A DNA stretch of 64,000 nt. Source: Pseudomonadota bacterium (GTDB lineage Bacteria > Pseudomonadota > Alphaproteobacteria > Rhodobacterales > Rhodobacteraceae). Location: contig JBCCXD010000005.1 in NCBI GenBank assembly GCA_039192165.1, positions 110,727-174,726 of the forward strand. Direction: 5' to 3'. The first letter of the stretch is position 1. Each line of letters begins with the position of its first letter. Below the pieces are notes generated by a model that worked only from the letters and a program-made list of their open reading frames with translations, did not search any database and was not told the DNA's origin. The position numbers were made by a program, and so were the translations under genes. Shown piece by piece: positions 7,338 through 13,158 of the stretch.

Positions 7338-8078
7338 ATGGCCGGCCATTCAAAATGGGCAAATATTCAGCATCGCAAGGGCCGTCAGGACGCCGCGCGG
7401 TCAAAGCTGTTTTCCAAGCTCGCCAAGGAGATCACCGTGGCGGCGAAAATGGGCGACCCGGACCCGGACAAGAACCCCCGCCTCCGCCTGGCGGTAAAGG
7501 AAGCCAAGTCGCAATCGGTGCCCAAGGACGTGATCGACCGCGCGATCAAGAAATCGCAAGGCGGCGACGCGGAGAATTACGACGAGATCCGCTATGAGGG
7601 CTATGGCCCCGGCGGCGTCGCGGTGATCGTGGAGGCGATGACGGATAATCGCAACCGGACGGCATCAACCGTGCGCTCAACGTTTTCAAAGAATGGCGGG
7701 AACCTTGGGGAGACCGGTTCGGTCAGCTTCATGTTCGACCGCAAGGGGGAGATCGTCTATCCGGCCGCCGCAGGCGACGCGGACACCGTTATGATGGCTG
7801 CGATTGAGGCGGGTGCCGAGGATGTCGAAAGCTCTGATGAGGGCCACACGATCTGGTGCGAGGATACAGACCTGAACGAAGTGTCGGGCGCTCTGGAAGC
7901 CGAGCTGGGCGAAAGCGAGGCCACGCGGCTGGTCTGGAAGCCACAAACCACGACCGAGTTGGGTCTGGAAGAAATGCAGAAGCTGATGAAGCTCTTGGAT
8001 GCGCTGGAAGATGATGACGACATCCAGAAGGTGACCGCGAATTTTGAAACCTCGGACGAGGTGATGGCGCAGCTTTAG
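7338..8078 (+). CDS. yebC: YebC/PmpR family protein
   Basis: [36 protein letters not shown]; start moved from 6918 to the canonical MAGHSKW. Confidence 0.97.
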
Positions 8079-8233
8079 TTGCGTGTCTAAAGCCGATCGG
8101 GTCCCGGCTTGGGACTTGGATTGTTCCGCGCTTGCAGCGAAGGTCCGGTTTGAGCCCACATTGACTTAGTAGTCTCCAAAGTGCCCAACTAAAACGGTGC
8201 AAGTGTTGCTGCTAACCAGACTAAAGGCGTTGA

Positions 8234-8572
8234 ATGCGGGTTGCTTGGAAAATGGTCGGAACAGGGGGCGCCAGTTTCGCGGCGGCATGGCTGCTGTTTG
8301 TATCGATTTATCGACCATCCGACCATGACTACCTCATCACCACAACATCGTATTACTTCAAGCGTATGTCTGAAATCGGGCACACCGGCGCTGTATCGTT
8401 TTCGGATTGTAGGCTCGAAGAAGCTGACGCCTCCGACCGAGATATGGGAGTTTCGATGTTTGGGCTTTGTCGGACTGAGAGCGACGGGGAAACGTTTCAC
8501 TTTGCCATCGCTATGAGCCTTACCGCGAATTTCGTTTACGCTGACATGGAACGGCGAAGCGCTGACGATTGA
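8234..8572 (+). CDS. Hypothetical protein with an N-terminal TM anchor
   Basis: 112 aa ORF filling the gap between two repeat spacers; hydrophobic N-terminus; no family recognised. Confidence 0.55.
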   Translation: MRVAWKMVGTGGASFAAAWLLFVSIYRPSDHDYLITTTSYYFKRMSEIGHTGAVSFSDCRLEEADASDRDMGVSMFGLCRTESDGETFHFAIAMSLTANFVYADMERRSADD

Positions 8573-8729
8573 CGGCAGCTTTGTCCGCAAAGCGGTTGTT
8601 CATGCAGAGCGCAGCGAATGGCAGCAACGAGTCCAACCTGACCGATGCTGCGCGTTGCTCGAATTTCTGCTAAGGCAGCAAATAGACTTGATATGGCACC
8701 ATGCTACAAGAGGAAGGTGGACCAAAAGG

Positions 8730-9143
8730 ATGCGGTTGGCTCGTCTTTGCATACTGTGGGTTTTGGTACTTTGTCCCCATGCGTTGAGAGCTGACACCGA
8801 GATTGATCCAGCATTGTTGGGTCGAGCATTGGGTTTCGATTTGTCCTACCAGCGGGAGTGCGTAGGACCTGTCCCACCTACGCGAGGACAAATGGTCTTT
8901 CTAACAGAGTACTCGGCAGCTTTGGTTCAGTTCTCCAAGCGCTTTCCCGGCGTCGAAAGCGCCGAATTCTTATATGAGTTCATACACAGTTCTGTGCGAA
9001 CTCAATTTGACTGTACGGAAGCACTGACGGAACGGGACAGGTATTGGGACGCTCTCCTGAGCAGGGGCTTGACCAAGGATTGTCTGATTAGGGCGATATC
9101 CGATAACAACGATTTGGACCCATGCTTGCAGCTAGACCAATGA
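8730..9143 (+). CDS. Hypothetical exported protein with four Cys in the mature part
   Basis: Signal-peptide-like MRLARLCILWVLVLCPHALRA from ATG 8730 (ORF track start 8655 lies in the repeat spacer). Confidence 0.6.
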   Translation: MRLARLCILWVLVLCPHALRADTEIDPALLGRALGFDLSYQRECVGPVPPTRGQMVFLTEYSAALVQFSKRFPGVESAEFLYEFIHSSVRTQFDCTEALTERDRYWDALLSRGLTKDCLIRAISDNNDLDPCLQLDQ

Positions 9144-9208
9144 GCGGACGTTAGCACACTCGCGGCGAACAGCTGCTTCGTCCGCTTCGAGCCCGTCTAA
9201 CGGGAGTC

Positions 9209-9817
9209 CTACCCTCGCAGCACCAACCAGGTCCATGTGACACCTGCCTGTTGATTTCCTCGCTGAACAGCTTGGGTGGTTTTGGTGTCGACAGCAGTGA
9301 ACCCGGCATCCTCCGCCCATGTCACCGTAGCCGCGACATTTGCAGGAAATACTGGCCGCGTGGGCGCACCTGCACCGTGCCTAATCGAAACAATGACTTT
9401 GCCTCCATCGACAGTCACTGCTCGTAGGGTCGAAAGAGCAGTTTGGCGGTCAGCAGCGTCCAAGTGCTGCCAAACGGCATTCAAAAGAACAATATCGAAC
9501 GATTGCCCAATTGAAATCGTGTTTGAGAGTTCAGGCAGGGCGTCTTTTATCCATGAGATACTAGGGGCTGTGTACTTTGCCATGCCGGCCTGCCTCAGAG
9601 CGTCTACAGGCTCGGCGGCCAGGACGTTATGAGAGAGTGAAGCAAGCCATGCAGCATCTCTCCCAGTCCCGGCTCCCACATCCAGTATGTGACAGGGCTG
9701 GGTCGGGATGTGCTTGATAACTGGCTTAAGCAGATCGGCTGAAGATATGTTTTCAACCCGCTCAATGAAGTCGCCGTTGGCTGCTTCCTCGTAGCCTTTC
9801 AGAATTTCACTTCTCAC
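9209..9817 (-). CDS. Class I SAM-dependent methyltransferase
   Basis: ILDVGAGTGRDAAWLA motif I; FDIVLLNAVWQHL. Confidence 0.9.
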   Translation of the reverse strand: MRSEILKGYEEAANGDFIERVENISSADLLKPVIKHIPTQPCHILDVGAGTGRDAAWLASLSHNVLAAEPVDALRQAGMAKYTAPSISWIKDALPELSNTISIGQSFDIVLLNAVWQHLDAADRQTALSTLRAVTVDGGKVIVSIRHGAGAPTRPVFPANVAATVTWAEDAGFTAVDTKTTQAVQRGNQQAGVTWTWLVLRG

Positions 9818-9969
9818 TCTGTACCCTTCGCGACTCCGATCAGCTTCTGGTTTTCGACGTGTCAGGTAATGAACGCAGGCGCAAATCTGTGTGTCGGCTT
9901 TGTCCGCTTCGACCCCCCAGTGACCTCAGAAGGCCGGACCCAGAAATCACAAAAGCCTGCGCAAATCCC

Positions 9970-10584
9970 TTAGTTGGTATGCGCCAGCGCTTTTTGGACG
10001 TTGGGCCGCTTTTTCACAGCCTCGTAATGCCGCGTGCAATTTCTGAATTCTGACAGGTCAAAGTCCTCACGCAGTGCGCGGTCATAGACCCAGAAAAAAT
10101 ATGAATCGCATGCCGTGTTATGGTCGAAGAACCAGGTACGGCCATCGAGTTCCTGCTCGACAAGAGCCATCTGCTCAAAGAACATCGCCTTCGCCTTGGC
10201 TTTGATGTCGTCATGCGCGCTCTCGATTTCGCAGAATTTGGCCACCCGAAAATGGCGGGTGATATGCGGGTGCATCCCTGAAGAAAACCAGTTCATGTAG
10301 GAAATTGCGCGTGCGCGTTCGAACCTGTCCTGTGGCAGCAGGTTGGCTTTGGGAAAGGCGCCGGCGATCCAGGTCTGAATCGCAGGATTCTCACTCAAAC
10401 CCTTCCCATCGACAACTAAATACGGAACTTTCTGCTTCGGATTGAGCGCCTTGTAACTCTCAGAGTTTTGCTCCTTTTTCGCGAGGCTGATCGACACAAC
10501 GTCGAAGTCGGCGCCCGCCTCCAGAAGAGAAACATAGGCGGCGATCGAACATGCGCCCGGAGCATGGTAAAGCGTGATAGTCAT
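9970..10584 (-). CDS. Glutathione S-transferase (beta-class-like)
   Basis: TLYHAPGACS, LNPKQKVPYL, LSENPAIQTWI. Confidence 0.92.
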   Translation of the reverse strand: MTITLYHAPGACSIAAYVSLLEAGADFDVVSISLAKKEQNSESYKALNPKQKVPYLVVDGKGLSENPAIQTWIAGAFPKANLLPQDRFERARAISYMNWFSSGMHPHITRHFRVAKFCEIESAHDDIKAKAKAMFFEQMALVEQELDGRTWFFDHNTACDSYFFWVYDRALREDFDLSEFRNCTRHYEAVKKRPNVQKALAHTN

Positions 10585-10789
10585 AGTCTTTCCTCTTGAA
10601 GGGTCTCAGCTCGCGCGGATGGTGCGCATTGGCGACGAGGCCGAACACTAACAGATATCCAAATGTGTCCAAGGTGCGCTTGCAGGTCATCAGAAATATC
10701 AATTAACAAACAGTAGGATACCACGCTCCACCTTGCGAGCCCCTAATAGCGTGGGCATGTCTAAGGCATGTATCCACTCGGAGGCTGCT

Positions 10790-11299
10790 ATGCAAAAAGT
10801 TGATTTGGATCGCTTCGTGGAAAAAGTGTTTTCTGCAAAACCATCTGGCACTCAGATCGACGACCTAAAGACTTTTTTTAAGACACAGTCAAAGAACCAC
10901 GACTTTTCTGAAACTGGCGCGGTATTTCGCTATATGGACGACCTCGACAACAAGAGTTCAGCGCTTCTTACCCACGTTTCAATGCTGATCGCAGCAGTCA
11001 GCATTATGCTCACTGTATTCGAAAACACAGTCGGCGATATTTTTCTTCTTCTAGAAGCCGCCGTCTACGTTGCCGTCGCCACCGGCCTTCTCCGATGCAT
11101 CAATATTGTGCGACCGGGTTTCCCACCAGAAGTCAACAAGTCGGCCCTGGCTGCCGAAGAAAACACAGAAGACTACGTTAATGCTATGGTCGAAGAAGCA
11201 GGAATACGACTAATCATTTATACGAAAGCAAGAGTAATAACCCTGTATGCGACACTAGCATTTCTTGCGGGTATCGTAGTTAAGTTGTTGTTCGGATGA
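10790..11299 (+). CDS. Hypothetical 3-TM membrane protein
   Basis: GGAGG RBS before ATG 10790; three hydrophobic segments; AT-rich codon usage. Confidence 0.7.
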   Translation: MQKVDLDRFVEKVFSAKPSGTQIDDLKTFFKTQSKNHDFSETGAVFRYMDDLDNKSSALLTHVSMLIAAVSIMLTVFENTVGDIFLLLEAAVYVAVATGLLRCINIVRPGFPPEVNKSALAAEENTEDYVNAMVEEAGIRLIIYTKARVITLYATLAFLAGIVVKLLFG

Positions 11300-11334
11300 A
11301 TAGACAATAGGGACGCCTACGCCCGCTAAGCAAG

Positions 11335-13158
11335 TCACAACGGAAACACCAACGGGATAACCAAACTTGCAACGATACCGGTGCTCAGGTTCAGCGGGAT
11401 GCCGACTTTCATGAAATCGGTAAACCGGTAGCCGCCGGGGCCATAAACCATCATATTTGTTTGGTAGCCGATGGGCGTGGCAAAGCTGGCGGACGCCGCG
11501 ATCATGACAGCGACCACGAGCGGACGCGGGTCAATACCAAGCGCAGTTGCAATGCCGATCGCGATCGGCGTGACCACAACGGCGACCGCATTGTTGGAGA
11601 CAAGCTCGGTCAAAACGGACGTCAGCAGATAAACCGCCCAGACGATCATGAACGGTGGCAGTTGACCCAGCACCGGGGCAATCCGATCGACAATCAGTGC
11701 CACAGCACCTGAAGCATCTAGAGCGGCGCCGACCGCAAGCATGGCAAAGATCAGCGACAAAAGCCGTCCTTCGACGAAGGAAAAGGCCTCTTCGGCATCG
11801 ATACAGCGGGTGAGTAGTACAACCGCGACCGCAAGCACTGCGCACATCAGGATGGGCGCCAGACCCGTCGCGGCAAGAAGAACAATACCGGCCATCGCCA
11901 AAAGTGCGATCGGCGCGTGACTTCGTCGATAGGCGCGCTCGGACGGTTGTGAGATGTCCACCAGGCCCTGATCAGCGGCAAGGCGCTGGATGTCTTCGGG
12001 GTTGCCCTCCAGAAGCAATGTGTCGCCGACACGGACCACAAGGTCATCAAGCTGACGACCAATATTCTGGTTCCGGCGATGGGCGGCGATCGGGTAAACG
12101 CCGTAGCGGCGGCGCAGCCGCAACTGACCGAGCGACCGCCCCACAAGGCCGCAACCAGGTGTGATCAGCACTTCAACGGTCGCGGTGCGCACCGAACTTA
12201 GCTTGTCGACCTCTGCCCCGGGTTCATCGGCAGCGCTATCCTGAGAGGAGGATCCGGTTTCGACCGATTTATTGGACTGCAGACTAAGAAGTTCGGCCAT
12301 CTCGGTCCGCAAAACCACCCGATCGCCGGCATCCAGCATGACCGCTGCGAGATCGCGCCGCAATGACATATCTCCGCGCAAAACGTCTATGAGCCGCACA
12401 CCGTCCCGTCGGAAGACTTCGACCTCCTGCGCGGGCTGCCCGATCAGGGCGCTGCCTTCAGGTATCGCCACTTCTGTAAAGAACTTCATGCGGGATTTGT
12501 TGGTCAAAAGCTCAGCCATGCTGTCGCGGACTGGCAGCAGGCGCCGGGCGACAAGTGCAATGTAGAGCATGCCCCAGGCCACAACTGCGAAGCCAACCGG
12601 GGTAATCTCAAACAGAGAAAACGGCTCCAAACCGTTGGCGCGGGCGACACCATCGACCAGAAGGTTCGTAGATGTGCCGATCAGTGTAAGCGTACCCCCC
12701 ATAATCGCAGCGTAACTCAGCGGGATCAGGAGTTTCGAAGCGCGGATGCCCAACGTTTTGGCCAGCTGCACAAATACGGGGATCATCACGACCACGACCG
12801 GAGTGTTAGAGACAAAGGCTGACGCAAGCGCGACAAATCCAAGAAGAACGCCAAGCGCGACAGCTGGGCGGTTGGCGGCGCGCTGCTGGGCGAAGGACGT
12901 GAACCAATCCAACGCGCCGGTACGCACCAGCGCCCCCATGACGATAAACATCGCTGCGATGGTCCACGGCGCCGGGTTTGAGAAGACATCTAGCGCCGCT
13001 TCATAGGGTAAAAGCCCCAGAACCAGAAGCAGCGTAGCCCCGGCCAGGGCGGTCACTTCGGCTGGATATACCTCGCGAATAAAGAGCACAAACATGCCCA
13101 GCACAACCGCGAGCGCAGTTAGTGCCTCCTGTGTCGGGGTCAGACCGAGATCAATCAT
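11335..13158 (-). CDS. SLC13 family permease with TrkA-C domains
   Basis: FVSNTPVVV, TLIGTSTNLLV, FATPIGYQTNMMVYGPGGY. Confidence 0.92.
   Translation of the reverse strand: MIDLGLTPTQEALTALAVVLGMFVLFIREVYPAEVTALAGATLLLVLGLLPYEAALDVFSNPAPWTIAAMFIVMGALVRTGALDWFTSFAQQRAANRPAVALGVLLGFVALASAFVSNTPVVVVMIPVFVQLAKTLGIRASKLLIPLSYAAIMGGTLTLIGTSTNLLVDGVARANGLEPFSLFEITPVGFAVVAWGMLYIALVARRLLPVRDSMAELLTNKSRMKFFTEVAIPEGSALIGQPAQEVEVFRRDGVRLIDVLRGDMSLRRDLAAVMLDAGDRVVLRTEMAELLSLQSNKSVETGSSSQDSAADEPGAEVDKLSSVRTATVEVLITPGCGLVGRSLGQLRLRRRYGVYPIAAHRRNQNIGRQLDDLVVRVGDTLLLEGNPEDIQRLAADQGLVDISQPSERAYRRSHAPIALLAMAGIVLLAATGLAPILMCAVLAVAVVLLTRCIDAEEAFSFVEGRLLSLIFAMLAVGAALDASGAVALIVDRIAPVLGQLPPFMIVWAVYLLTSVLTELVSNNAVAVVVTPIAIGIATALGIDPRPLVVAVMIAASASFATPIGYQTNMMVYGPGGYRFTDFMKVGIPLNLSTGIVASLVIPLVFPL

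Follow-up and report, generated by a model that had tools for sequence, protein, structure and literature searches.

How did five unrelated genes come to lie between two conserved genes that converge on one another? The stretch of DNA analysed here (the window, 64 kb) is C5:110727-174726 of a 3.74-Mb metagenome-assembled genome (MAG) of the Rhodobacteraceae, and positions given without a contig name are those of the window. At 8079-11334 a 3.26-kb interval, where yebC (+ strand) and the gene for a CitMHS/SLC13-type permease (- strand) converge, holds five unrelated genes, and copies of one degenerate sequence element lie in its spacers. The ends of the units between these elements are conserved, the units stand in co-oriented arrays, the same units occur in unrelated contexts, and strains differ by whole cassettes. 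The interval is thus, on balance, probably an array of mobile gene cassettes of a non-integron kind, moved by site-specific recombination. A preliminary description had proposed integron-like cassettes with a different site grammar, and in its main claim, that exchange takes place at these sites, it is supported.

The five motif copies of the preliminary description were each found at the coordinates it gave. Together with the cassettes they delimit, and the open reading frames (ORFs) within, they yield the following map.

8134-8157, + strand: site 0, the array entry junction, in short form (GCAGCGAA at 8134-8141, g, then GTCCGG-TTT-GAGCCC at 8143-8157).

8152-8588, + strand: cassette 1, GAGCCC...ORF1...cggcagctttG-TCCGC; a 93% identical variant from the sister metagenome X2 breaks exactly at 8152.

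8573-8588, + strand: cggcagcttt-GTCCGC, directly after the ORF1 stop.

8583-8628, + strand: empty 46-nt linker unit between cassettes 1 and 2, GTCCGC-aaagcggttgttcatgcagagc-GCAGCGAA-tggcagcaac; conserved in unrelated junctions of its own and other genera.

8611-8618, + strand: copy of GCAGCGAA, then GAGTCC at 8629-8634.

8629-9185, + strand: cassette 2, GAGTCC-aacctGACCGATGCTGCGC...ORF2...GCGGCGAA-cagctgcttcG-TCCGC; similarity elsewhere is confined to 8629-9185.

9162-9169, + strand: copy of GCGGCGAA, then GTCCGC-TTC-GAGCCC at 9180-9194.

9180-9194, + strand: junction of cassettes 2 and 3, short form GTCCGC-TTC-GAGCCC; coverage of the X2 strain begins at 9184-9199.

9189-9907, + strand: cassette 3, GAGCCC...S-adenosylmethionine (SAM) methyltransferase (gene on the - strand)...tgtcggctttG-TCCGC; similarity elsewhere is confined to GGGCTC...GCGGAC.

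9902-9916, + strand: junction of cassettes 3 and 4, GTCCGC-TTC-GACCCC.

9911-11326, + strand: cassette 4 region, possibly two units, with GST (-) and ORF5 (+); a weak GAGCCC lies at 10745-10750.

A conserved element of some 110 nt can be recognised, most clearly in the copy at 8573-8675. When thirty copies from four further genera are aligned (alignment A8), they give the consensus CGAAcGnCnGCTTTG^TCCGCAnAGCnGTCnTTnG-N9-GCAGCGAAcGnCnGCTnCG^AGCCCAn-AGTGACCnATGCTGCGC-N-GCACGAATGnCnGCTT, in which a box, GAAnGnCnGCTTYG, recurs with a period of about 47 nt; the hexamer that comes after each box is either GTCCGC or GAGCCC. A left cassette end begins with GAGCCC, often continued by AAnnTGACCGATGCTGCGC...CGAATGTCnGCT. 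A right end reads (GCAGC)GAA-n-GnCnGCTTYG and meets the hexamer of the next unit, which is GAGCCC where another cassette follows and GTCCGC where the neighbour is the 46-nt empty linker unit (GTCCGC plus a 40-nt interior) or the 9-nt short form GTCCGCTTC. Junctions accordingly occur in a long form (right-end box, GTCCGC, the 40-nt linker interior ending in its own box, GAGCCC; for example 8573-8634), in a form termed U2, GCAGCGAA-N10-GAGCCC, and in a short form, ...CTTC-GTCCGC-TTC-GAGCCC (8143-8157, 9180-9194, 9902-9916 and locus L039, described below). The linker unit at 8583-8628 has the top covariance-model score in the genome, 93 bits. Copies of the element are only about 65% identical to one another.

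Cassettes carry one gene, occasionally two, in either orientation, and the elements point the same way within an array: 7/7, 3/3, 4/4 and 4/5 in four arrays, and 25 of 30 neighbouring pairs overall (p=1.6e-4). Because gene orientation is mixed, the elements have no fixed relation to transcription units. At 8573 and 9144 the first motif copy comes closely behind a stop codon. Directly after the ORF1 stop, a perfect 6-4-6 palindrome, GCTTTGtccgCAAAGC (8578-8593), and a T-rich run score as terminator-like, and in some copies the right cassette end may also serve as a terminator.

Do these units move? For cassette 2 the limits of similarity can be read in several places. Proteins about 90% identical to the ORF2 product are encoded on two metagenome contigs, L041 and L042, and in a three-way DNA alignment an identity of 85-100% extends from GAG(T/C)CC (8629) to GCTTYGTCCGC (9185), with both flanks unrelated; the identity profile jumps at 8622-8632 and falls at 9180-9190. 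As a whole the ORF2 unit is about 90% identical in these two contigs, and it recurs, 74% identical and with the same limits, in the Phaeobacter plasmid pP72_b. When plasmids were searched with the interval by blastn, the only match was for 8679-9183, on three Phaeobacter inhibens plasmids, and there the copy lies in an unannotated gap among unrelated genes, flanked by degenerate copies of the element. More distant homologues of ORF2 occur between MarR and dehydratase genes (L038) and between DHDPS and sigma-factor genes (L039), with the left-end element upstream in each, in L039 in the short form GGTCCGCTTTGAGCCCAATTTGACAGATGCTGCGC. The left-end element of ORF2 is kept at cassette-level identity, whereas the sequence just upstream is unrelated.

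A 1.4-kb stretch of the Phaeobacter inhibens plasmid pP72_b (NZ_CP010737, record 120875-122317; locus L037) is annotated as empty and contains an intact ORF2 homologue. The homologue is flanked not only by degenerate element copies but also by a 68-nt direct repeat that is about 90% identical (L037 5648-5725 and 6520-6590).

Homologues of the cassette 3 methyltransferase, with 74-78% protein identity, are present in a MAG (L043), in Mesobaculum littorinae and in Leisingera sp. JC1. At the DNA level the cassettes can be aligned between GCGGAC and GGGCTC, the reverse complements of GTCCGC and GAGCCC, and no further; over the four contexts the limits fall at 9907-9917 and 9182-9191. With respect to the ends the gene is in reverse orientation in 4/4 contexts, and the last 25 or so nucleotides at the right end are more conserved than the adjacent non-coding DNA.

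Strain differences at the locus itself were read from the source metagenome of the window (run X1) and from two sister metagenomes with related strains (X2 and X3). In X2 the dominant strain has about 99% identity to the window over 9217-12300 and zero depth over 8636-9183, with coverage back at 9184-9199, that is, at the 9180-9194 junction. Another X2 contig, a minor one with 93% identity, matches the window over 8152-8478 and departs from it after that; its break lies at the G of GAGCCC. A contig from X3 is identical over 8107-8158 and carries different sequence after that. Cassette 2 is absent from strains X2 and X3. From these contig breaks it follows that close relatives hold different cassettes behind the same entry site. 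In X1, two variants of ORF1 over 8230-8449, at depths of about 77 and 30, differ at 16 of 220 positions, and the MAG therefore stands for a mixed population at the ORF1 cassette.

A recent event is seen in another genus. In genome G041 a 905-nt segment, consisting of a linker and a GNAT gene, is duplicated within one array, the copies being 99.6% identical and 11.5 kb apart; each end of the duplicate falls at GnCnGCTTTG^TCCGC, and its flanks are unrelated. Counted together, at least eight independent boundaries lie no more than about 6 nt from the point where box and hexamer meet, within an element about 110 nt long. The gene swaps at the locus that the preliminary description had proposed to look for in other strains, with breakpoints in the motif, are thus found at 8152-8158 and 9184-9199, and its cassette exchange is supported by single-gene units that recur in unrelated contexts and whose similarity stops at GAGCCC and GTCCGC.

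How widely is the element spread? An alignment (A3) and a sequence-only covariance model (R1) recover the element in 15/15 genomes of the genus, with 1-19 copies each, usually clustered. In a sample of 101 genomes from across the family, R1 detects it in 39, or in 38 of 100 genera (E<=1e-7), with up to 25 strong copies per genome. Outside the family it was found in one of about 149 alphaproteobacterial genomes (E<=1e-6). The profile scan that had been suggested thus returned an element that is clustered and co-oriented in the spacers of variable low-GC arrays and nearly absent beyond the family. The genes in these arrays have ordinary accessory functions: GNAT, SDR, aldo-keto reductase, LysR, hydrolase, cyclase, ATP-grasp and DUF2853.

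The present genome has about eight copies, and the strong ones are confined to two arrays in 3.74 Mb. Under a long-form sequence model, strong further copies lie at one other low-GC locus only, C4:92.7-94.5 kb, where three are on the minus strand; the relatives G007 and G008 also have copies of the 110-nt element. The 15-mer GTCCGCTTCGAGCCC, allowing at most one mismatch, occurs in the whole genome only at 9180 and 9902, and in the 101 genomes of the family there are 35 exact copies of the short-form 15-mer GTCCGCTTYGAGCCC, compared with 2 of a reversed control. A count restricted to the 64-kb window does not set the 15-mer apart from chance (5 matches with up to 3 mismatches, 3.9 expected); its significance is seen only at the scale of the genome and the family. 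A generic repeat search of the region gave mostly chance pairs, some of them coding, that are as long as the true ones, so pairwise repeat length alone is no evidence here.

The second array (C4:92700-94500; locus L028 8700-10500, minus strand) has three long-form junctions in a stretch of small genes of about 50% GC. The junctions separate a membrane protein gene, an ATP-grasp gene and reversed genes, and DUF2853 and porin-like genes lie nearby. A plasmid search with this array gave coding-level matches only and no informative boundaries. Weak element or right-end matches at 157658, 170396-170529 and 177583 mark C6:156000-178000, which may be a third, decayed array or island; a different tyrosine recombinase, a 348-aa frame, is found there at C6:156685-157089.

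The genes of the locus are as follows.

7338-8078, + strand: yebC/TACO1-family gene (Pfam PF01709, PF20772), the conserved left flank.

8234-8572, + strand: ORF1, 112 aa, no family; stop codon at 8570-8572.

8727-9143, + strand: ORF2, 138 aa, no family; its product is probably secreted.

9209-9817, - strand: SAM-dependent methyltransferase, the third gene of the interval.

9970-10584, - strand: GST, the fourth gene.

10790-11299, + strand: ORF5, a membrane protein, no family.

11335-13158, - strand: CitMHS/Na_sulph_symp (SLC13-type) permease with TrkA_C domains (Pfam PF03600, PF02080, PF00939), the conserved right flank.

Gene calls and Pfam agree with the preliminary description that five unrelated genes in mixed orientation lie between convergent core genes, and its impression that the interval is richer in AT than its flanks holds: GC is 0.50-0.56 over 8001-11500 and about 0.60 on both sides, a drop that coincides exactly with the interval and makes it a low-GC islet. 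The yebC and permease genes are neighbours in at least 15 relatives of the same genus, with a gap of 0.3-8.3 kb. Since the length of this gap differs and none of its DNA is shared with the interval studied here, this is a variable spot. Pattern search and inspection by eye show GTCCGC-type sites at the edges of the unrelated yebC-permease intervals of G007 and G005, which suggests that yebC-permease is an old attachment site. The long-form model gave no match over the relatives' yebC-permease intervals. A pattern match at the interval of L020 falls inside signal-peptide coding sequence and was judged to be chance.

The right part of the interval is less regular. The fifth spacer (10585-10789) has no clear site, as the preliminary description had noted, and holds only the weak GAGCCC at 10745-10750. 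The sequence cctac-GCCCGC-taagcaag at 11316-11334, read by eye only, is a possible degenerate right end of the array; it may instead be ancestral, because the relative G005 has a similar flank.

Which enzyme might move the cassettes? There is no tyrosine recombinase on the whole 320-kb contig that contains the window, and the nine in the genome are all on other contigs. The earlier statement that the window has no recombinase therefore holds for tyrosine recombinases, the one class screened there. The most likely enzyme is a candidate encoded at C4:9530-10150, in a region (C4:1-25000) of low GC (0.46-0.58): an intact, minimal tyrosine recombinase of 210 aa, the only copy in the genome, which consists of a catalytic domain only (PF00589, 56 bits) and retains the R..HxxR..H..Y residues. 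In size it resembles fimbrial invertases such as FimB and FimE, and it shares the PF00589 catalytic domain with these and with Xer recombinases. However, it lies well under all NCBIfam cut-offs (XerA, NF040815, 52 against 220 bits; invertase, 21 against 222 bits), and its nearest solved structures, XerD catalytic domains, are distant (E about 5e-4). It forms a large family of its own, with at least 8,000 scored matches at E<=1e-10; the best 120 listed matches are 60-96% identical, mostly 70-75%, and the named ones belong to Rhodobacteraceae genera.

The recombinase gene may be mobile in the same way as the genes it would move. In six genomes it lies 40-250 nt from a site, downstream and in the same orientation in G007:C48, G006:C45 and G070:C9, and upstream in opposite orientation in G011:C71, G002:C1 and G118:C8. 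The flanks of these recombinase genes are conserved and contain box-like sequences, and the gene thus looks like a cassette itself. The copy on C4 is followed by a palindrome, GGGCCGTT-cgttag-GACGGCCC, and an inverted box-like sequence (GCAGCGAATGTCGGAAATGCGGGC on the other strand). Among the matches listed, metagenomic contigs with the recombinase are mostly about 0.8-2 kb long; assemblies seem to break on both sides of it, as would fit a multi-copy mobile unit. Across the family, element and recombinase occur together in 23 genomes and are both missing from 49; 16 genomes have only the element and 13 only the recombinase. The co-occurrence with one recombinase family that had been predicted is thus found (odds ratio 5.4, p=2e-4), by a statistic that ignores phylogeny and genome plasticity and is to that extent a weakness of the case.

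These observations lead to a proposal in which site-specific recombination would move the cassettes, crossing over at or beside the box/hexamer boundary, GCTTYG^GWSCSC. The joined right and left ends of a free cassette would form its recombination site, and insertion could take place at any resident junction. The yebC-permease interval would be the ancestral attachment spot in the genus. The 210-aa recombinase, itself carried in such units, would here act in trans, since the intact copy is on C4 and not on the contig of the window. The suggestion in the preliminary description of a recombinase acting in trans is consistent with that placement.

Several points weigh against this proposal. Boundaries are resolved to about 6 nt only, because the hexamers are conserved in all sites, and the cases compared include no excised circle, no pair of empty and filled sites and no exact crossover. 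Some boundaries are ragged, namely the right ends of L038 and L039, and neither the fifth spacer nor the right end of the array has a clear site. The population evidence comes from assembled unitigs, and the genome is a MAG. With respect to the enzyme, all 15 genomes of the genus have the element and only 6 have the 210-aa recombinase, leaving nine without it, and G041, despite its recent duplicate, has none at E<=1e-40 (that genome is 87% complete). Adjacency to a site is weak evidence for an enzyme, because any cassette gene adjoins sites by construction. Finally, inverted arms around an overlap of 6-8 bp, the classical core of tyrosine recombinases, are not evident at the junction.

Could the cassettes be exchanged without a dedicated enzyme? 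The elements might be conserved repeats that provide portable homology, cassettes being swapped between them by RecA-dependent recombination or gene conversion, for example after transfer by gene transfer agents (GTA), conjugation or transformation. Conserved sequences of 45-110 nt that flank exchanged genes would suit such a process, as would the ragged boundaries, the lack of a visible classical core site and the arrays in genomes without the minimal recombinase. Homologous exchange should scatter the boundaries, however, and copies that are about 65% identical are a poor substrate for RecA; since at least eight boundaries cluster within about 6 nt of the box/hexamer boundary, this route is disfavoured. 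Moreover, the left-end element is as well conserved as the cassette it moves with, next to unrelated upstream sequence, and the dispersed, non-tandem duplicate of G041 would be hard to obtain by unequal crossing-over. We regard homologous exchange as unlikely, and site-specific recombination as the better account of these boundaries. Tandem integration at a tRNA-like att core was considered and rejected, the site copies being only about 65% identical and the left and right ends distinct.

A further possibility is that the cassettes are non-autonomous transposons, cargo-carrying relatives of the PATEs of IS200/IS605 type or of IS91-like elements, mobilized in trans by an HUH enzyme. Such elements have asymmetric ends without terminal inverted repeats, make no target duplication and insert 3' of a short sequence, here ...TTYG. 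In the aligned contexts there are indeed neither terminal inverted repeats nor target-site duplications, features looked for as signs of an insertion sequence (IS) or a miniature inverted-repeat transposable element (MITE). The ends are asymmetric, the left flank nearly always ends in CTYC or TTYG, and small hairpins lie near the right end, such as GTCCGCnnnGCGGAC and GCGGACR...YGTCCGC with one compensatory change. However, these hairpins are not present in all cassettes and are no more stable than shuffled sequence, and the cassettes go into sites of their own family that are already there, not into a bare tetranucleotide. There is also no IS200-type Y1 transposase in this genome: PF01797, the RAYT/Y1 family, gave no match, and the control genomes responded. 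Transposition of this kind is accordingly improbable, and the site-specific reading is retained.

It is very improbable that the elements are terminators, untranslated-region elements or protein-binding sites that accessory genes carry while moving by other means: the terminator-like 8578-8593 with its T-rich tail, the position of the first motif copy behind the stops (8573, 9144) and a TTGACC-N17-GAATKT arrangement at the left end, upstream of ORF1 and ORF2, are in keeping with it, but the sites keep one orientation whichever way the genes point (the methyltransferase runs in reverse in each of its four contexts), neither an Rfam match nor a significant fold was obtained, a sigma-70 scan finds no promoter in the region, and the hexamer breakpoints and strain-level swaps are left unexplained. 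The promoter reading of TTGACC-N17-GAATKT was dropped on the result of the sigma-70 scan.

If the interval is a cassette array, how does it relate to systems already described? Integrons are the model for modular gene capture. As in their arrays, and in CALINs (clusters of attC sites without an integrase), co-oriented sites stand in tandem between mostly single, unrelated and often uncharacterised genes, a given cassette recurs in different arrays and is bounded within the site, and each junction is a hybrid of the ends of two cassettes. Arrays with no recombinase nearby, as here and in CALINs, are likewise common to both, and so are differences of whole cassettes between related strains. In contrast to integrons, there is no IntI, and the linked recombinase, at 210 aa, possesses neither an N-terminal nor an IntI-specific domain. 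The attC cores RYYYAAC/GTTRRRY and a significant single-strand hairpin are both lacking, and whereas attC is conserved in structure, the sites here are conserved in sequence. Genes occur in both orientations, and the gene for the candidate recombinase sits in a cassette-like unit. The host, too, is different, being an alphaproteobacterium; integrons have been reported to be entirely absent from Alphaproteobacteria (bioRxiv 10.1101/2022.02.06.479319). An attC-like hairpin was rejected as the basis of the sites: both strands of three element copies fold no better than shuffled sequence (z -1.25 to +1.16), and the consensus fold has no covariation support (the covariation term is positive).

The pdif modules of Acinetobacter plasmids are also small gene modules bounded by short sites, found in many plasmid and chromosome contexts and mostly without a recombinase inside. 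The pdif sites are 28-bp dif-like sequences of the form 11-6-11, alternate in orientation and are used by the host XerCD. The present sites differ in being co-oriented and longer (box plus hexamer, with a period of about 47 nt) and in lacking an 11-6-11 dyad. The only dyads at the sites are of the form 6-3-6 or 6-4-6 (GTCCGCnnnGCGGAC, GCTTTGtccgCAAAGC), in a comparison with the general dif form. Repetitive extragenic palindromes (REP), the BIMEs built from them, and MITEs are likewise short conserved intergenic sequences with small palindromes, often placed just after stops. Unlike these, the present element is of low copy number (about 8 here, at most 25 elsewhere), co-oriented and confined to low-GC variable loci, where it delimits exchanged genes; it has no terminal inverted repeats, target duplication or stable hairpin.

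A match to a known IS or MITE end or to a REP family would have spoken against the cassette proposal, and none was found, nor any attC grammar; Rfam gave no match at E<=1 on either strand over 7900-11500. The preliminary description knew of no formal account of the motif, and six motif strings, including the exact 15-mer, are indeed absent from the searchable literature. Topic and exact-string searches returned nothing relevant; their coverage of subscription journals is thin, so an earlier description is possible.

The genomes of marine Rhodobacteraceae are very plastic, and the fine-scale mechanisms of this plasticity are poorly known. More tentatively than the cassette nature of the interval itself, we suggest that the Roseobacter group could have a second, evolutionarily independent cassette system that does the job of integrons, with sequence-defined sites (box and hexamer, 47-nt period), a 210-aa recombinase that is itself a cassette, and arrays on both chromosomes and plasmids; we hold this wider view to be possible rather than probable. 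If true, it would provide a compact pair of recombinase and site for study and a rule for spotting mobile accessory genes in metagenomes. A family-wide cassette system would explain many of the small variable islets on chromosomes and plasmids, and would make testable the long-standing question of how single genes move among roseobacters without IS elements or phages.

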